DNA of 52,159 bases, taken from an uncultured Acidimicrobiaceae bacterium. GTDB lineage: Bacteria; Actinomycetota; Acidimicrobiia; Acidimicrobiales; Bog-793. The notes beneath the pieces are model-generated. The model was given only the letters and a program-made list of their open reading frames with translations, searched no databases and had not been told where the DNA came from. A program made the position numbers and the translations under genes. This document shows positions 43,871 to 52,159 of the stretch, one piece after another (positions within the stretch are counted from its first letter, which is position 1; each line of letters opens with the position of its first letter). The stretch covers positions 1-52,159 of the forward strand of contig CAZAMA010000007.1 of the NCBI GenBank assembly GCA_964485645.1. Reading direction: 5' to 3'.

Positions 43871-44122
43871 GTGTCCGATTACGTCATCCCCGAACCCGAG
43901 CCGAAAGAGATCGACGAGAAGCGGGCGATCGAGCTTCGCCACCTCTCCGACAACGCCGTGCTCAAGGGCCGGCCCTCAGGCGAGGAGCGGTGCGACACCT
44001 GTCGCTACTACCTCGAGCCCTACAACGACATCTCCTACTGCTGGCACCCGAAGCTGCGAATTCTCGTCGGCTCGAGGTGGTGGTGCCAGTGGTGGGAGGA
44101 GATGCCGGACGGCGCGTCCTAG
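43871..44122 (+). CDS. Small (83 aa) Cys/Trp-rich protein with HiPIP-like cysteine spacing
   Basis: C41-x2-C44-x12-C57-x14-C72, then QWW. No signal peptide. Lies immediately upstream of hypC. Confidence 0.55.
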   Translation: MSDYVIPEPEPKEIDEKRAIELRHLSDNAVLKGRPSGEERCDTCRYYLEPYNDISYCWHPKLRILVGSRWWCQWWEEMPDGAS

Positions 44123-44195: not shown

Positions 44196-44468
44196 ATGTG
44201 CCTCGGCATACCAGGTGAGATAGTGGAGATCGTGGACCGAGCGCGCCAGCTGGCGAAAGTCGACGTCGCCGGAGTACGCCGCAATATCAACTACGGCTTG
44301 CTCGAGCACGAAGGCATAGGGCCAGGAGATTGGGTGCTCGTTCACGTTGGATTCGCGATGTCGAAGATCGACGCGGCGGAGGCGGAGCTCGCGATGGAGG
44401 CTTTGAAGCTGATGGGCCAGGTATACGACGACGAGATGCGAGCGGTCGTTGACTCAAAGATCTCCTGA
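44196..44468 (+). CDS. hypC: Hydrogenase maturation chaperone HypC
   Basis: MCLGIPGEIV N-terminus and GDWVLVHVGFAMS. GAGGAAG RBS upstream. Confidence 0.9.
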   Translation: MCLGIPGEIVEIVDRARQLAKVDVAGVRRNINYGLLEHEGIGPGDWVLVHVGFAMSKIDAAEAELAMEALKLMGQVYDDEMRAVVDSKIS

Positions 44469-44514: not shown

Positions 44515-45642
44515 GTGCGCTTCGTCGATGGGTACCGTGACCCGGCCGCGGCGCGCGCCCTCGTCTCTCGCATCACCGAGCTCGCCGGCGACGACCACTT
44601 CAAGTTCATGGAGGTGTGCGGCGGCCACACCCACACCATCTACCGCCACGGCATCGAGCACATCTTGCCCGACACGGTCGAGCTCGTGCACGGACCCGGC
44701 TGTCCCGTATGCGTCATACCGATGGGTCGGGTCGACGACGCGATCGCTCTGGCAGAGCACCCCGGCGTCATCTTCACCTCATTCGGGGACATGATGAGGG
44801 TGCCCGGGTCGAAGGGGAACCTCCTGTCGGCCAAGGCGCGCGGAGCCGACGTGCGTTTTGTCTACTCACCCCTCGACGCCTTGCGGGTAGCCGTAGAGAA
44901 CCCGGCGCGAGAAGTCGTGTTCTTTGCCGTCGGGTTCGAGACAACGGCGCCCTCGACTGCCGTCACCGTGCTGCGTGCCCGTGCCGACATGGTGTCCAAC
45001 TTCACGGTCTTCTCGAACCACGTGACGATCGTCCCGCCGATGAAAGCGATCCTCGACTCTCCCGATCTCCGCCTCGATGGGTTTCTCGCGCCCGGCCATG
45101 TGTCGACCGTCGTCGGACAGCGGCCTTACCGCTTCGTGCCGGAGACCTATCACAAGCCTGTGGTGACGGCGGGTTTCGAGCCGCTCGATGTCCTCCAGGC
45201 CATCGAGATGCTCCTTCTGCAGATCCGCGAAGGGCGTTGCTGCGTCGAGAACCAGTACACGCGATGCGTGCGTGAAGAGGGGAATCCGCGTGCGCTCGAG
45301 CTGCTTTCGGAGGTATTCGAGGTCCGGCCGTACTTCGAGTGGCGCGGTCTCGGGTTCATATCCGAGAGCGCGCTCAAGCTGCGCGACGGCTTCGCCCTCT
45401 TCGATGCCGAGGTCCGTTACCGCGTGCCGGGCGTGAGGGTCGCCGACCCGAAGGCGTGCCAGTGCGGAGAGGTGCTGAAAGGCGTCATCAGGCCCTGGGA
45501 GTGCAAGGTGTTCGGAACCGCCTGCACACCGGAGATGCCGATCGGCACTTGCATGGTCTCATCCGAGGGAGCTTGTGCCGCTTACTACAACTTCGGGCGG
45601 CTGCACCGCGAGGTGGCTGTCGGGGTGCGAGCCAGGATCTGA
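44515..45642 (+). CDS. hypD: Hydrogenase maturation protein HypD
   Basis: FMEVCGGHTH, GPGCPVCV, FAVGFETTAP and the C-terminal CxxxxxxC cluster. Confidence 0.9.
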   Translation: MRFVDGYRDPAAARALVSRITELAGDDHFKFMEVCGGHTHTIYRHGIEHILPDTVELVHGPGCPVCVIPMGRVDDAIALAEHPGVIFTSFGDMMRVPGSKGNLLSAKARGADVRFVYSPLDALRVAVENPAREVVFFAVGFETTAPSTAVTVLRARADMVSNFTVFSNHVTIVPPMKAILDSPDLRLDGFLAPGHVSTVVGQRPYRFVPETYHKPVVTAGFEPLDVLQAIEMLLLQIREGRCCVENQYTRCVREEGNPRALELLSEVFEVRPYFEWRGLGFISESALKLRDGFALFDAEVRYRVPGVRVADPKACQCGEVLKGVIRPWECKVFGTACTPEMPIGTCMVSSEGACAAYYNFGRLHREVAVGVRARI

Positions 45643-48006
45643 CCGAGGCTCACCGGGAGCGCCCACCGCCTGCTCGACCTCCTCTCCTTTAGCTCCAGCG
45701 GGGGACGGGCCCGCAGCCGTCGCTGCGATCGCAGCTTGACCGATGCTGACTCCGCCGTCGTTGGGGGGTACGACCTCGTGCACGAGCACCTCGAAACCAA
45801 GGCGGCGGAGCTCTTCGCTCATGAGCCGCGAGAGCCGTGTGTTCTGGAAGACGCCACCGCTCAGGGCGACCGTCCCCAGCCCTCGTTCGGCCGCGAGCTT
45901 GGCCGCAAATGAGGCGGCCGCGATGGCGAGGCTTTTGTGGAACCCGGCGGCGATGGCGGGGATCGGAGTACCGCGGTGCTGCTCTTCGACGACAGCGGCG
46001 ATGAGTGGGCTCGGATCGAGCACGCTCGACGAATCGTCATGAGACAGCTCGAGCGGGTAAGTTGCTGCTTCGGAGTCAGGGACGGAGGCGGCGAGAGCTT
46101 CGAGCTCGACGGCGGCCTGGCCCTCGTAGGTGATGGTCCTGCGGACACCGAGAAGCGCGGCGACCGCATCGAAGAGGCGGCCGACGCTCGTTGTCCTCGC
46201 GACTCCGTCGGATCGCTCAGCCAGCGCGAGCACGGGGCGCCACCGGTCGTCGAGCTCGGGACCGAGCGTAGCCGCGGCGCCTGCGCCCAGGGCCGAGGCC
46301 ACCCACGAGAGAGCCATGCGCCATGGCTCCTTGACGGCGGCAGCCCCGCCTGGCAGGGCAGTGGCCCGCAGGTGACCGACTCGCTCGAAACCCTCGAGGT
46401 CGGCCGCGAGGAACTCACCGCCCCAAAGCACGCCGTCAGGCCCGAGCCCGAGCCCGTCGAAGACCACTCCGAGCACGGTGCCGGTGTGCTGGTGCTCGGC
46501 CAGGCAGGCAGCTACGTGGGCGTGGTGGTGCTGCACCGGCCACGGCTCGAGATCCAGCTCGAGCGCGTACTTCGTGGACAGGTACTCAGGATGAAGGTCG
46601 TGCGCGACCACCTGTGCCTCGACCCCCTGGAGCGTGCTCAGGTGGCCGATAGCCTGCAGAAAGCAACGGTATGCCGCGAGGTGCTCGAGGTCGCCCAAAT
46701 GCTGGCTCGTCACGATGCTTTGTCCTTTCACGACCGAGATCGTGCTCTTCAGCTGGGCGCCGACGGCCAGTACTTGGCGCCGGGCCTCGCCGGGCAACGT
46801 GAGAGGTTCGGGCACATAGCCGCGGGAGCGGCGAACTGCCTGGGTCCGGCGTGGGCTCGAGCGGATGACGGAGTCGTCGCATGCGACGTGGATCGGCCGG
46901 TCGTGAGCAAGCAGCCCGTCGACGAGCGGTCCGAGGCGCTCGATCGCGTCGCTGTCGATGTAGGAGATCGTGTCGCCGGAGAGGTTGCCGCTCGTCATGA
47001 CGAGCGGGCGCCCGACTCCGGCCATGATGAGGTGGTGCAGCGGCGTGTAGGCGAGCATCACACCGATCTCGGGCAGACCTGGGGAAACGCCGCGCGCGAG
47101 CATCCCATCGGCCCGCCCGCGCGCGAGCACGATCGGTCGCCTCGGGGAGGCCAGCGCCGCTTCTGCCGCGTCGTCGAGATGGCAGAGCGCCCGCGCCATA
47201 TCGAGGCCGCTGACCATCACGGCAAAGGGCTTGGCGTCGCGTGCCTTGCTGCGTCGCAACGAGGCGACGGCTGTCTCATTCGTGGCGTCGGTCGCCAGGT
47301 GGTATCCGCCGATGCCTTTCACGGCCACGGCCCCGCCGCAAAGCAGGCATTCGATGGCGAGCTCGAGTGCCTCCCCGCCCTGCGCGACCGCCCTGCCGTC
47401 AGGCTCGAGGTAGCAAAGTCGCGGCCCGCAGGAGGGACAGGAGTTGGGCTGCGCGTGGAACCGCCTATCGCGCGGGTCGTCGTACTCGGCCTGGCACTTC
47501 TCGCACATGACGAAACCCGCCATCGTCGTGGCGGGCCGGTCATAGGGGACCGAGATCGTAATGGTGTAGCGCGGCCCGCAGTTGGTGCAGTTGGTGAACG
47601 GGTACCTGTAACGCCTGTTCGTCGGGTCGTCGACCTCGGCGAGGCACTCGCTGCATGCTGCTGCGTCGGCGCTCACTGCGGCGGCGGGCGCGCCGCGTGC
47701 CGAGCTCGCCAGGATCTCGAATCCTTCCGCGCGCAAGGTGACTTCAAGCGGTGTCACGCGCACCGAGGTGACGCGGGCGAGCGGTGGCGGCTGCTGGCCG
47801 AGGGCGCGGCACAGATCGGCGACGGCATCTCTGTCGCCCTCCACCTCTATAAGCACCCCGGCGGAGTCGTTGCAGACGAAGCCTCTCAGACCACGCGAGA
47901 CGGCCTCTCGGTAGACGAAGGGGCGAAAGCCCACTCCTTGGACCGTTCCCGTGACCCGGATCGAGCATCTCGCGTCGCTCCCGGGCACGCCGCCAGTTGG
48001 GTCCAC
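45559..48006 (-). CDS. hypF: Carbamoyltransferase HypF
   Basis: Acylphosphatase domain (VTGTVQGVGFRPFV), two zinc-finger pairs (CSEC...CTNCGPRY; CEKC...CPSCGP), and YrdC and Kae1-like domains. Confidence 0.9.
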   Translation of the reverse strand: MDPTGGVPGSDARCSIRVTGTVQGVGFRPFVYREAVSRGLRGFVCNDSAGVLIEVEGDRDAVADLCRALGQQPPPLARVTSVRVTPLEVTLRAEGFEILASSARGAPAAAVSADAAACSECLAEVDDPTNRRYRYPFTNCTNCGPRYTITISVPYDRPATTMAGFVMCEKCQAEYDDPRDRRFHAQPNSCPSCGPRLCYLEPDGRAVAQGGEALELAIECLLCGGAVAVKGIGGYHLATDATNETAVASLRRSKARDAKPFAVMVSGLDMARALCHLDDAAEAALASPRRPIVLARGRADGMLARGVSPGLPEIGVMLAYTPLHHLIMAGVGRPLVMTSGNLSGDTISYIDSDAIERLGPLVDGLLAHDRPIHVACDDSVIRSSPRRTQAVRRSRGYVPEPLTLPGEARRQVLAVGAQLKSTISVVKGQSIVTSQHLGDLEHLAAYRCFLQAIGHLSTLQGVEAQVVAHDLHPEYLSTKYALELDLEPWPVQHHHAHVAACLAEHQHTGTVLGVVFDGLGLGPDGVLWGGEFLAADLEGFERVGHLRATALPGGAAAVKEPWRMALSWVASALGAGAAATLGPELDDRWRPVLALAERSDGVARTTSVGRLFDAVAALLGVRRTITYEGQAAVELEALAASVPDSEAATYPLELSHDDSSSVLDPSPLIAAVVEEQHRGTPIPAIAAGFHKSLAIAAASFAAKLAAERGLGTVALSGGVFQNTRLSRLMSEELRRLGFEVLVHEVVPPNDGGVSIGQAAIAATAAGPSPAGAKGEEVEQAVGAPGEPRSDPGSHPDSHLAVQPPEVVVSGTSSLG

Positions 48007-48020
48007 TTAAGCGCGGGTGG

Positions 48021-49160
48021 TCAACAGATGCGCGGGAGCGGGTCGCCGACGAGCATGTCGACTATGCGCGTGCTCCCAAGGCTCGTGCGCAACACGACGA
48101 TTCCCTCCGGTTGTGCCATGATCTCGCCGATCTCGGCCGCGTCTGCCCCGAGGGGGTGCGATCGGAGCGCCTGCAGTGCCGCGGCCGACTCGGCTGGCGG
48201 CACCACCGCGAGGAGCTTGCCCTCGCTGGCGACATAGAGGGGATCTATCCCGAGCACGTCACAGGCGCCGGCGACGCTCGCCCGCACGGGGAGGGCACGC
48301 TCCTCGAGCACGACCGCGACAGCAGCGTCACGGGCCAGCTCGTTGCAGATCGTTCCGAGACCTCCTCGCGTCGGGTCCCGCATCCAACGGGTCGAGGGGG
48401 CAGCAGCAAGCAGCACTTCGACGAGATCGCCGAGAGGCGCCGTGTCGGAGGCGATGTCGGCCTCGATGGCAAGCTCGCCCCGGGCAAGCATGACGGCCAT
48501 GCCGTGGTCGCCGATGGTGCCCGAGACGATCACGCGGTCGCCCGCTTGGACGCGGGCCGGTCCGAGCCGGCGCCCGCTCGGGACGGTCCCGACTCCTGAG
48601 GTGGTGATGTAGAGACTGTCGGCCGCACCCCGGTTGACGACTTTCGTGTCCCCAGTGACGATCGCGACTCCGGCACCGGCGGCCGCCTCGGCCATGTCAG
48701 TCGCGACGGCTCGGAGCTCAGCTACCGGGAATCCCTCCTCGATCACGAAGGCCGCGGCGATGAAGGAGGGCCGTGCACCCATCACGGCGAGGTCGTTGAC
48801 GGTCCCGTGCACGGCCAGGTGTCCGATCGATCCGCCGGGGAAACGCAGTGGTCTCACGACGAAAGAGTCGATCGTGAAGGCCACTTGCCCGCCCGCCGGG
48901 AGCTCGAGCACAGCCGCGTCCCCAAGTGGCGCCTCACCTGGGTGTCCGAAGGACGCGAGGAAGACGGCTTCGACCAGGGCTGCGGACGCTTTGCCACCGG
49001 CTCCGTGCGCGAGCGTGACGATGTCGTCCTTGAGTCGGGGTCCCCGTCGCCGGAAGGTCTCGATCCGCTCCAACACCTCCGCCTCGCGTCGATCAGTTGT
49101 CCGCCGCTCGTCGAGAGACGGGGTCACAGCCTCCTCGGGCGGCTCGAGCCGGTCGGTCAT
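48021..49160 (-). CDS. hypE: Hydrogenase maturation protein HypE
   Basis: AIR-synthase-like fold, LAHGAGG, and a C-terminal PRIC. The ATG at 49160 forms an ATGA overlap with the upstream SIS gene (the track ORF starts at 49202). Confidence 0.9.
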   Translation of the reverse strand: MTDRLEPPEEAVTPSLDERRTTDRREAEVLERIETFRRRGPRLKDDIVTLAHGAGGKASAALVEAVFLASFGHPGEAPLGDAAVLELPAGGQVAFTIDSFVVRPLRFPGGSIGHLAVHGTVNDLAVMGARPSFIAAAFVIEEGFPVAELRAVATDMAEAAAGAGVAIVTGDTKVVNRGAADSLYITTSGVGTVPSGRRLGPARVQAGDRVIVSGTIGDHGMAVMLARGELAIEADIASDTAPLGDLVEVLLAAAPSTRWMRDPTRGGLGTICNELARDAAVAVVLEERALPVRASVAGACDVLGIDPLYVASEGKLLAVVPPAESAAALQALRSHPLGADAAEIGEIMAQPEGIVVLRTSLGSTRIVDMLVGDPLPRIC

Positions 49161-49828
49161 GTCCCGACCTGGTCCGCGATGATCGCTTGAACCTTTTCCC
49201 ACACCGCGACTCCGATCCGGTCCTGGGTCTCCTGGATGCGGTGCACGCTTTCGCAGTCCACGACGAGGCAGTGGTCGAGGTCGTCACAGGCGGCCATATG
49301 GCCCCCACCGTGGCCCGCCATGCCAAGGCTGAGGATTCCCCGGCGGCGAGCCTCGCCGAAGGCTCTCATGACGTTCTCGGAGTTGCCGCTCGTCGAGTAA
49401 CCCAGGGCCATGTCGCCCGGTCGCCCGTGGGCGATGATCTGGCGCGAGAATACGAGCTCGAACCCGACGTCGTTGCCGAGCGCGGTGATCGTGGCTCCGT
49501 CGGACCCGAGAGCGCGGGCCGCGAGCGCTCGTCCCGCCGGTGGGTTCCGGAAAAGCGCCGCCAATGCCGCTGCATCGGTCGAGCTGCCACCGTTGCCGAA
49601 GGTGAAGAGGCGCCCGCCTGCGGCAAAACGCCGAGCCATCTCCGTGGCGATGTCGTCGATCTCCGCTTCGAGCCTGTCGATAGTGGCGTATCCAAGCGCA
49701 AAGCTCTGTGCCGCCTTCGAGGCTGCCGATGCAGCCAACTCGCAGAGCAGGCTGGTCGGATCCCGCTCCTGTGGCGAGGTGGACGGGTAGAGGAAAGCTG
49801 TCATCTCAGGTGTCATGGGGTCAGTCAT
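49157..49828 (-). CDS. SIS-domain protein (GmhA / phosphoheptose-isomerase-like)
   Basis: FGNGGSSTDAAALA, TALGNDVGFELVFSRQ, STSGNSENV and a HRIQE-type tail. Confidence 0.8.
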   Translation of the reverse strand: MTDPMTPEMTAFLYPSTSPQERDPTSLLCELAASAASKAAQSFALGYATIDRLEAEIDDIATEMARRFAAGGRLFTFGNGGSSTDAAALAALFRNPPAGRALAARALGSDGATITALGNDVGFELVFSRQIIAHGRPGDMALGYSTSGNSENVMRAFGEARRRGILSLGMAGHGGGHMAACDDLDHCLVVDCESVHRIQETQDRIGVAVWEKVQAIIADQVGT

Positions 49829-50579
49829 CGAGGAGTGCCAGGGCCGAGCCGGCGTGAACGAGAAGGAGGTCGCCCGGCCTCGGCGTGCCGATCAAGGTCG
49901 TGTCGATCGACTCCAGTCCGCCGGCTGTTCGCACGCGAGCACGAAGGAGCGGGCCTGTATCGACTACCTCGGCGAGGCGTCCCTCGTCAGAACAGCTGAT
50001 GCAGAGCCCGTCGTCGCCAGACACTCTCGGCGTCCCGGCGTCTTGGCCGAGCAGCCCGCCGTATTCGAGGCAGACATGTGTCAGTTCCCAGAGAAGGTGG
50101 TAGACGAGCACGAGCGGGCCGCCGTAGGCAGCCCGAGTCGGCTCGCCGTCGACCCAAAGGACGTGGTCGGCCGAGCCAGGGGCCGGCCGGCTCCCGCTGC
50201 CAACCCAGATCGATTTGAGGCCCCAGAGGGGCGCGCGCCGCATCACGGCGCACGTGGAAGCCTCGACGGCGGTGGCGATGGCGACGATGACGTCACCGGG
50301 CTCCGCGACGGCTCGCAGCGTGCCCACGAGATCGCTGCCGCTGATCGCGACCGCCGGCAGCGCGGGCTTGCCGAGGATGACCGGGTGGACGAACTCCACG
50401 GCGACGTGCTGGGCATGGTAAGGCCATTCCGGAGCCACGCACCACATCGTTGCCCCTGATGCGAAACTCCGGGCGAGGTCGAGACTGGCCATCGCGAGGT
50501 CGTCGGCCATCGGGCCCATTGCATGGCGAGGGGCCGTGCCCGGCGAACACGACGGGCTGCGGTCATCGGCAAAATCCAA
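49821..50579 (-). CDS. Fusion protein: degenerate SIS-like N-domain plus C-terminal HypC/HupF-like OB domain
   Basis: The C-terminal 60 aa (CISCSDEGRLAEVV...RARVRTAGGLESIDTTLIG...GDLLLVHAGSALALL) aligns by eye with HypC (MCIGVPG...VDLTLVG...WVLVHVGFAM). The N-domain follows the GmhA layout but lacks the GNGGS motif. Confidence 0.6.
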   Translation of the reverse strand: MDFADDRSPSCSPGTAPRHAMGPMADDLAMASLDLARSFASGATMWCVAPEWPYHAQHVAVEFVHPVILGKPALPAVAISGSDLVGTLRAVAEPGDVIVAIATAVEASTCAVMRRAPLWGLKSIWVGSGSRPAPGSADHVLWVDGEPTRAAYGGPLVLVYHLLWELTHVCLEYGGLLGQDAGTPRVSGDDGLCISCSDEGRLAEVVDTGPLLRARVRTAGGLESIDTTLIGTPRPGDLLLVHAGSALALLDD

Positions 50580-50700
50580 GACGAGCCTCCTCTACTCACG
50601 ATAGTAGGTGACCTGAGGTGCCGGTCGCGCATGGGAGCAAGGGGGATCCGGGCCTGCCGGGCTGTCACCGTCGGGCCGCAGGCGCGCCAGACTGGTGGGC

Positions 50701-52159
50701 ATGGCACCCCAGTTCATCTTCACCATGCGCGACCTCCGCCGGTTCTACCCACCTGACCGCGAGGTGCTGCGAGGCATCAACCTCTCCTTCTATCCCGGTG
50801 CCAAGATCGGCGTCATCGGAGCCAACGGCTCGGGCAAGTCGTCGCTCCTCGCGATCATGGCGGGCGAGGACGAGGCCTACAGCGGTGAGGCGCGTCTCAC
50901 CCCGGGCTTCACCGTCGGCTTCCTACCCCAGGAACCCGTGCTCGACCCTTCCAAGGACGTAGTCGGCAACGTGGCAGACGGCGTCGCGGCGACGATGAAC
51001 CTCCTCGACCGGTTCAATGCGGTCTGTGCCGAGATGGGTGAGCCGGGCGCCGACTTCGACAAGCTGCTCGCCGAGCAGGCCACCCTCCAGGACGGCATCG
51101 ACTCGGTCCGTGGCTGGGATCTCGAGCGGAAGTTCGAGATCGCCATGGATGCGCTCCGCCTGCCCCCTGGCGATGCCGATGTAACGGCGCTGTCGGGTGG
51201 CGAGCGTCGCCGGGTCGCCCTCTGCCGCCTCCTGCTCTCGAGTCCTGACCTCCTCCTCCTCGACGAGCCAACGAACCACCTCGACGCCGAGTCGGTAGCA
51301 TGGCTGGAGCGAACCTTGCAGGAGTATCCAGGCACCGTGGTGGCTGTGACGCACGATCGCTACTTCCTCGACAACGTCGCTGGGTGGATTCTCGAGCTCG
51401 ACCGTGGGGCCGGCATCCCCTGGAAGGGGAACTATTCCTCGTGGCTCGAGCAGAGAAAGGCACGCCTCGACGCCGAGGAGAAAGCGGACCGGTCGAGGCA
51501 GGCCGCGCTCGCCCGGGAGCTCGAATGGATCAAGATGTCGCCGCGGGCCCGCCAGGCCAAGAGCGGCGCGCGGATAAATGCCTACAACAGCCTTGTGAGC
51601 GAGGCAGAGGTGGCCGAGCGGAGGGCCGATGGCCCGGAGATCACCATCCCTCCAGGCCCGCGCCTTGGGGATCGCGTCGTCGAAGCGGTCGCGCTGAGGA
51701 AGGGCTTCGGCGACCGGCTCCTCATCGACGGGCTGTCGTTCGTGCTGCCGCCCGGTGGAATCGTGGGAGTGATCGGCGCCAACGGTGCCGGGAAGACGAC
51801 CCTGTTTCGCATGATCGCCGGCGAGGACAAGCCCGACGAGGGCGTCTTGGACCTCGGGAGCACCGTCAAGCTTGCCTACGTCGACCAGTCCCGGGAAGCC
51901 CTTGTGGCCGAGAACACCGTCTTCGAGGAGATCACGGGCGGTCTTGAGCACATCGTGGTCGGCAATCGCGAGCTCCACGGCCGGGCTTTCGTGTCCAGTT
52001 TCGGCTTCCGGGGAAGCGACCAGCAGAAAAAGGTCGGGCAGCTCTCCGGAGGAGAGCGCAACCGAGTGCACCTGGCCAAGGTGCTGAAGAGTGGGGCAAA
52101 CGTGCTCCTCCTCGACGAGCCGACCAACGACCTCGACGTCGACACCCTCCGTTCCCTGG
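50701..52159 (+). CDS. ettA: ABC-F translation factor EttA (energy-dependent translational throttle), 3' end outside window
   Basis: My own translation of frame 1 from ATG 50701: MAPQFIFTMRDLRRFYPPDREVLRGINLSFYPGAKIGVIGANGSGKSS...LSGGERRRVAL...LLLLDEPTNHLD...GANGAGKTT...LSGGERNRVHL...LLLDEPTNDLD. It is open to the end of the window and is absent from the ORF track because it has no stop. Confidence 0.9.
   Translation, partial: MAPQFIFTMRDLRRFYPPDREVLRGINLSFYPGAKIGVIGANGSGKSSLLAIMAGEDEAYSGEARLTPGFTVGFLPQEPVLDPSKDVVGNVADGVAATMNLLDRFNAVCAEMGEPGADFDKLLAEQATLQDGIDSVRGWDLERKFEIAMDALRLPPGDADVTALSGGERRRVALCRLLLSSPDLLLLDEPTNHLDAESVAWLERTLQEYPGTVVAVTHDRYFLDNVAGWILELDRGAGIPWKGNYSSWLEQRKARLDAEEKADRSRQAALARELEWIKMSPRARQAKSGARINAYNSLVSEAEVAERRADGPEITIPPGPRLGDRVVEAVALRKGFGDRLLIDGLSFVLPPGGIVGVIGANGAGKTTLFRMIAGEDKPDEGVLDLGSTVKLAYVDQSREALVAENTVFEEITGGLEHIVVGNRELHGRAFVSSFGFRGSDQQKKVGQLSGGERNRVHLAKVLKSGANVLLLDEPTNDLDVDTLRSL

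Follow-up and report, generated by a model that had tools for sequence, protein, structure and literature searches.

Why should two proteins with the fold of the phosphosugar isomerase GmhA be encoded among the genes that mature [NiFe]-hydrogenases, and what might they do there? The locus that raises this question lies on a 52,159-nucleotide contig from an uncultured Acidimicrobiaceae bacterium (CAZAMA010000007.1 of assembly GCA_964485645.1; hereafter the window, meaning this whole stretch). Here a minus-strand gene for a degenerate SIS domain joined to a HypC-like domain (49821..50579; hereafter the fusion, with the pseudo-SIS as its first domain) is followed by a gene for a GmhA-like SIS protein (49157..49828) and then by hypE (48021..49160) and hypF (45559..48006). 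Read against GmhA, the two proteins appear to be reciprocal halves of one composite active site, the pseudo-SIS keeping a metal-binding triad and the SIS protein the phosphosugar pocket. The pair belongs to a widespread, uncharacterised hydrogenase-maturation module that is not unique to the window; new relative to GmhA and HypC are the split composite site and the tethered, truncated chaperone domain.

An association of gmhA with hydrogenases is already known. Genes annotated as gmhA lie beside group 1h/2a hydrogenase genes in Acidobacteria (PMC5900883) and neighbour hydrogenase genes in Frankia (PMC11879354, citing a 2020 thesis), and in Acidithiobacillus the protein encoded by such a neighbour rises together with the Hyp proteins (PMC7735108). 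A SIS cluster has been reported in hydrogenase neighbourhoods (PMC12727194), and M. smegmatis MSMEG_2706, annotated gmhA, is next to hypE (PMC5445863, found only in a microarray table). The searchable literature mentions "gmhA" as a neighbour only; no function, split site or heteromer is reported there.

GmhA-type Active-Site Residues Divided Between Two Proteins

Both proteins of the window share the GmhA-type SIS fold (SIS_2; TIGR00441; PDB 2x3y/2xbl, 2i2w, 1tk9, 5i01). The SIS protein (223 amino acids, aa) matches Pfam SIS_2 with 49 bits, finds its best PDB matches in GmhA structures (E 3e-27) and has a sequence identity of 33-38% with GmhA; for a natural fusion, superposition of the SIS domain on that enzyme gives template modelling (TM) scores of 0.83-0.93 and a root-mean-square deviation of 1.3-1.8 Å. 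The pseudo-SIS domain spans residues 24-177 of the 252-aa fusion protein (50049..50510, minus strand), as placed by Foldseek, profile alignment to 2xbl and the residue comparison below; Foldseek aligns it with GmhA 2x3y (E 1e-8, TM 0.65-0.72), and DiaA is also among the structural matches. An AlphaFold2 model of the fusion protein built with 117 homologues (predicted local distance difference test, pLDDT, 87; predicted TM score, pTM, 0.78) has an alpha/beta domain (24-177) joined by a linker of low confidence to a short helix at a CxxC motif (194-197) and then five beta-strands (201-250). Neither protein reaches the family cut-off of GmhA: the SIS protein scores 108 bits with the NCBIfam gmhA equivalog against a cut-off of 209, and the fusion gives no match.

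In GmhA one monomer supplies His64, Glu68 and His183 to the zinc ion, and its neighbour supplies Gln175 (PMC5387315). These four ligands are invariant among orthologues and required for activity (PMC5705639), and three chains contribute to each site (PMC11056994). When B. pseudomallei GmhA is aligned with 119 members of the SIS family and 164 of the pseudo-SIS family, these residues prove to be distributed over the two families. GNGGS, Asp61, Asn97-Asp98, Arg107-Gln108, STSG..S and Gln175-Glu176 are 97-100% conserved in the SIS family (98-100% for the loops GNGGS, GND..SRQ and STSG) and lost from the pseudo-SIS family, where the GND..SRQ helix is deleted over 15 residues. The metal ligands follow the opposite pattern. 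His64, Glu68 and His183 are retained by 93-94% of the pseudo-SIS family, whereas the SIS family has Ser/Gly/Ala, Leu and Phe/Leu/Tyr, respectively, and His or Glu never occurs at these three positions among its 119 sequences.

The window conforms to this division. Its SIS protein has a complete pocket (GNGGS, Asp61, ND, RQ, STSGNS, plus Gln175-Glu176 within RIQE), and at the four zinc-ligand positions it carries Ala, Leu, Gln and Val. The pseudo-SIS has His, Glu, Gly and His at the same positions, the triad being His58, Glu62 and His161; VAPEWP occupies the place of GNGGS, and STSG, Gln175 and the GND..SRQ segment (a 15-aa deletion) are gone. An earlier note on this DNA had recognised GNGGS and STSGNS in the second gene and VAPEWP in the first, and all three are present as described. 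The intact GmhA-type motifs that it saw do not make the SIS protein an intact GmhA, since His64, Glu68 and His183 are missing and the fusion retains exactly these.

Jointly, then, the pair has every zinc ligand of GmhA, four in all, and its entire phosphosugar pocket, but on two polypeptides of which neither has a complete site alone. Because the residues are divided reciprocally, a complete site would be possible only where a pseudo-SIS subunit meets a SIS subunit. In GmhA itself a single chain supplies His, Glu and His, and the adjoining chain Gln; the pair is thus most likely an obligate heteromer with composite sites. It differs from GmhA further in its own motifs (LYPF, AVEFxHP and YHxLWELxH), in being encoded among hyp genes rather than heptose or lipopolysaccharide genes, and in the fusion of one partner to a HypC-like domain.

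A Tethered HypC-like Domain

The C-terminal part of the fusion protein (residues 193-252; 49824..50003, minus strand) is homologous to the oligonucleotide/oligosaccharide-binding (OB) barrel core of HypC. It scores just under the Pfam HupF_HypC cut-off (27.3 against 28.5 bits) and well below that of TIGR00074 (27.1 against 48), although precomputed PF01455 matches are present in many of the more than 4000 homologues of the fusion, for which the NCBI name is "HypC/HybG/HupF family chaperone". More sensitive comparisons are clearer: a profile of the domain matches the solved HypC/HupF structures 3vyr (E 2e-6), 2ot2 (3e-4) and 3d3r (5e-3), as well as 2z1c, and hhalign against 81 canonical HypC sequences (that of the window and 80 from related loci) gives 97.6% probability and an E of 5e-12 over HypC residues 6-60. 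The earlier note had aligned this region with full-length HypC and proposed domain profiles and a structure prediction as a check; the C-terminus is indeed modelled as a five-stranded, HypC-like OB barrel, but the likeness is confined to the OB core, and the C-terminal helix is absent.

What replaces the business end of the chaperone? HypC, HybG, HupF and HoxL (PF01455) begin with MC[LIV][GA][LIV]P, and their Cys becomes N-terminal once Met is removed. The domain of the fusion is internal, starting at residue 193 of 252, and, as the earlier note had anticipated, offers no free N-terminal Cys. In its place is a CxxC motif (Cys193-Ile-Ser-Cys196; 49992..50003, minus strand), located within about 3 residues of the HypC N-terminal Cys position by the register of the profile and hhalign comparisons. 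Five residues are invariant among the 117 sequences: C193, C196, D198, E204 and H242. The last of these aligns with the "VHxG" His of HypC (E. coli HypC His51, in the HVGFA motif), which the two kinds of protein have in common along with the barrel core.

Gene Order, Natural Fusions and Spread

The four minus-strand genes between 45.5 and 50.6 kb form a chain, fusion to SIS to hypE to hypF. The fusion stop overlaps the SIS start by 8 nt (49821-49828), the SIS TGA and the hypE ATG (49160) overlap as ATGA, and 14 nt separate the end of hypE (48021) from the start of hypF (48006), all as the earlier note had given them. The fusion gene begins with TTG at 50579, and a Shine-Dalgarno sequence, GAGGAGG, can be read 6 nt upstream (50586..50592, minus strand); its closest homologue is also 252 aa long with a similar leader (MDPTDD type, MD..DD). 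A promoter and terminator scan of 45400-50900 gave no signal above background. HypE is identified by Pfam AIRS/AIRS_C and HypF by its acylphosphatase, zf-HYPF, Sua5 and HypF_C domains. On the plus strand are a canonical hypC (44196..44468), which begins MCLGIPG, scores 88 bits with Pfam and 78 bits with TIGR00074 and lies where the earlier note had placed it, and hypD (44515..45642; Pfam HypD, 513 bits), convergent with hypF. The 3' ends of hypD and hypF overlap by 84 nt (45559-45642). Shortly upstream of hypC is an 83-aa, Cys/Trp-rich open reading frame (ORF; 43871-44122, plus strand) without a match in Pfam or NCBIfam.

With one genome scanned per species, relatives turned up in at least 562 species, and synteny was read in the best 80 loci, all from Actinomycetota. 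In 79 of these 80 the SIS gene comes immediately after the fusion gene, and its start overlaps the fusion stop by 1, 4 or 8 nt at 60 of 77 measurable loci. This recurrence is far beyond chance. The pair likewise adjoins hypE, hypF, hypC or hypD in 79 of the 80 and frequently lies next to group 1h/2a structural genes. In a phylum sample of 201 genomes, 31 match the fusion or the pseudo-SIS part and HypD is found in 29 of these. The co-conservation with hyp and hydrogenase genes named as a test in the earlier note is borne out. The lone locus without a partner (L011:1604-2362, from an Acidimicrobiaceae metagenome-assembled genome) has an orphan fusion copy with neither a SIS gene nor hyp neighbours. 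Its signature motifs are degraded (AVEFARPF; SHLLWELTHNW); this copy is probably decaying and forms no counter-example to the pairing.

The hydrogenases that accompany the module elsewhere are of groups 1h and 2a. In Mycolicibacterium the pair sits in the Huc (group 2a) operon, with the order hucS-hucL-protease-x-x-HucE-NHL-hypF-hypC-[fusion]-[SIS]-hypE-hypC-hypD-DUF6390, and in many mycobacteria and Acidimicrobiales it is found beside group 1h genes (small subunit, large subunit and DUF5947).

The two proteins also occur as one chain. Among public proteins, about 25 clusters at 90% identity have the order pseudoSIS-HypC'-SIS, and about 40 join pseudo-SIS and SIS with no HypC-like domain. A model of one such three-domain protein (P0251; pLDDT 92, pTM 0.80) resembles, over the whole chain, the tandem-SIS isomerase domains of GlmS.

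An Undivided Relative and the Origin of the Pair

Where might a divided site have come from? In the group 1h ("actinobacterial-type") cluster on plasmid pHG1 of Cupriavidus necator H16 (hypF-hypC-SIS-hypD-hypE-hypA-hypB), the SIS gene (H16_RS31885) encodes a single 229-aa protein with all four zinc ligands and all pocket residues, and its motifs LYPF, AVEFxHP and YHxLWDLxH are split between the two proteins of the window. Plasmids of Bradyrhizobium and Mesorhizobium likewise have an undivided SIS gene between hypC and hypD. Phylogenetic analysis places the hydrogenase-linked SIS proteins in one clade apart from GmhA (Shimodaira-Hasegawa-like approximate likelihood ratio test support of 100), within which three separate lineages are recovered: undivided (99), SIS (93) and pseudo-SIS (91), the last on a long stem of 1.77 substitutions per site. 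The window pair thus shares with the undivided form its clade, its motifs (LYPF, AVEFxHP and YHxLW[DE]LxH) and its position in a hyp operon. The undivided form is one gene whose product has the complete site and is not joined to a HypC-like domain, whereas the form in the window is duplicated, sub-functionalised and fused. The gmhA genes of the group 1h/2a loci in the literature (PMC5900883, PMC7735108, PMC11879354) and MSMEG_2706 are counted with the undivided kind.

A three-gene version is seen in an actinobacterial group 1h locus (L093:10886-12449, genome G059), where a pseudo-SIS, a stand-alone HypC paralogue with CxxC and a SIS protein are encoded directly upstream of the group 1h structural genes. 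The first SIS of this locus is partly degenerate, with GNGG and the GxN..xHQ segment both remaining in weakened form, and appears to represent a halfway state in the splitting. The two gene orders, hypC-SIS for the undivided form and hypC-[pseudoSIS::HypC']-SIS for the split one, fit a tandem duplication of a hypC-SIS cassette, and this gene order suggests that the first SIS may subsequently have been fused with the second hypC.

The Source Genome, Its Hydrogenases and HypX

The genome from which the window derives is 86% complete in 519 contigs, with the module and hypC, hypD, hypE and hypF present once each. Searches of it with tblastn found no hypA and only a weak hypB-like match (contig C114, 32% over 148 aa). 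The only true [NiFe] large subunit found in it is group 3b-like, about 434 aa long and ending in DPCISCSTH plus a tail (C32:4229-7940); its neighbours are a small subunit, HyhG/HyhB-like partners, a maturation protease and a DUF6390 gene, of a family that also follows hypD in most mycobacterial loci with the SIS pair. A second contig carries a group-4/Ehr-like membrane complex (C1:5000-11000), whose large-subunit-like protein lacks the [NiFe] cysteines: RVEGVASVAH stands in place of RxCGxC, and the C-terminal DPCxxC is absent.

HypX was not found in this 86% complete genome, where only weak Fmt-like and enoyl-CoA-hydratase-like matches came up. Within the 201-genome sample HypX is missing from 28 of the 31 genomes that match the fusion or pseudo-SIS part and present in only five altogether. 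Three of those five (G109, G154 and G189) also carry the module, on a different contig from HypX in each case, and G154 shows a single large subunit. The idea of the module as a simple HypX substitute is unsupported, both being present together in these three genomes.

Proposed Function and Alternatives

We propose, with a probability of about 0.7, that the two proteins form an obligate pseudo-SIS/SIS hetero-oligomer with composite metal-phosphosugar sites, tethered by its HypC-like domain to HypC/HypD/HypE or to the large subunit, and that this complex acts as an accessory in [NiFe] cofactor assembly. The sequences themselves show the domain identities, the reciprocal residue loss, the constant pairing of the genes, the natural fusions and the common ancestry with the undivided form, all of which speak for it. 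Such a step in maturation, as the earlier note had suggested, would be one not described in the searchable literature. Its ancestor would be a hydrogenase-linked, GmhA-like SIS metalloprotein, encoded by one gene between hypC and hypD as in other bacteria today; after duplication the two copies would have lost opposite halves of the composite active site, the first retaining only the His-Glu-His metal triad and the second the phosphosugar loops together with the Gln whose GmhA counterpart extends to the metal of the adjoining chain. The assembly is probably an alpha2-beta2 tetramer with two sites, and translational coupling of the two genes may keep the subunits in matched amounts. The OB domain, with its CxxC and "VHxG" His, would dock the complex on the HypC/HypD/HypE machinery or the large subunit. 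As to chemistry, the binding or conversion of a phosphosugar resembling sedoheptulose-7-phosphate at a divalent-metal site appears most likely, which would in some way contribute to making the Fe(CN)2CO centre. That the GmhA pocket is kept almost perfectly favours binding or conversion of a phosphosugar over a purely structural, DiaA-like role.

Several points weigh against this proposal. The roughly 40 clusters of single-chain pseudoSIS-SIS proteins without a HypC-like domain indicate that this domain is not essential to the SIS pair. Some of the single-chain "fusions" may themselves be frameshift artefacts of error-prone assemblies (P0392, locus L008); at L008 (ERZ25039507 contig_3171) hypD, hypF and hypE are each split into two or three ORFs, probably a product of error-prone long-read data. 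In the 201-genome sample, 68 of 97 HypD-bearing genomes are without the module, which must therefore be an optional add-on to hyp systems rather than a general requirement of maturation. A group 1h/2a hydrogenase was sought in the 86% complete source genome and none was found, group 3b being the only kind that turned up; either the module serves the 3b enzyme here, or a 1h/2a locus is among the sequence that the assembly lacks. Finally, the searchable literature contains no deletion phenotype and no biochemical assay for the module.

The alternative that survives best, though with far less weight than the proposal above, is a non-catalytic scaffold in which a SIS oligomer gathers Hyp proteins or large subunits by its HypC-like arms and performs no small-molecule chemistry. 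DiaA, the DnaA initiator-associating protein, provides the precedent: it is a GmhA-fold tetramer that serves a non-sugar process purely by partnering other proteins as an oligomer, the structural comparisons return it, and a HypC-like domain does suggest protein-protein docking. DiaA is, however, a homotetramer that, in the alignment, is itself without the catalytic Glu, whereas the window pair holds the full catalytic inventory in trans. Purifying selection acts strongly on that full set of metal and phosphosugar residues, whether the form is undivided, split or fused, and the HypC-like arm is absent from many family members.

Somewhat less plausible is a device for handling metal, iron or nickel, in which the His-Glu-His(-Gln) site and the CxxC/His of the OB domain would pass iron to HypC/HypD under oxic conditions and the phosphosugar pocket would be allosteric or vestigial. 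We know of no established iron donor for HypCD. A 2-His-1-carboxylate site and a CxxC beside a HypC fold are typical metal sites, and the failure to find hypA, with a hypB-like match that is only weak, in the source genome would also suit such a device; yet the phosphate-binding residues, at 98-100% conservation, are kept too strictly for a vestige.

A role with a CO or CN precursor is pure speculation. In its most specific form it would be an oxygen-compatible and HypX-independent step, in which CO or a reduced-carbon precursor is released from a phosphosugar enediol at the His-Glu-His-Gln site and passed to HypC/HypD by the CxxC OB domain. This we regard as improbable, and the idea of a CO source is weakened by the coexistence of HypX and the module in some genomes.

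Least credible of all, and rejected as an identity for the SIS protein, is an ordinary heptose-synthesis GmhA lying by chance near hyp genes, next to a chaperone of HupF type that is unrelated to it and whose N-terminal extension is dead: many homologues are annotated (JGI, NCBI) as "D-sedoheptulose 7-phosphate isomerase" and "HypC/HybG/HupF family chaperone", and the identity to GmhA and conserved pocket residues agree with this, but three of the four zinc ligands that are invariant and required in GmhA (PMC5705639) are missing, the gmhA score is sub-threshold, the hydrogenase-linked family forms a clade of its own, the SIS gene stands beside the fusion in all but one of the 80 loci, and the supposedly dead extension keeps at 93-94% precisely the residues that the SIS protein lacks.

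Implications for Hydrogenase Maturation

Group 1h/2a [NiFe]-hydrogenases take up H2 from the atmosphere, and their maturation proceeds in air. To our knowledge, the assembly of their Fe(CN)2CO centre in the presence of oxygen, and the source of its CO where HypX is lacking, are open questions. The module is also of relevance to producing these enzymes in foreign hosts for use as biocatalysts. The reciprocal loss of active-site residues would also provide a clean natural case of sub-functionalisation that forces an obligate heteromer. A conserved module, its metallo-phosphosugar site complete though split, in the hypC/D/E/F operons of hundreds of species represents a testable candidate for a missing step in hydrogenase maturation.

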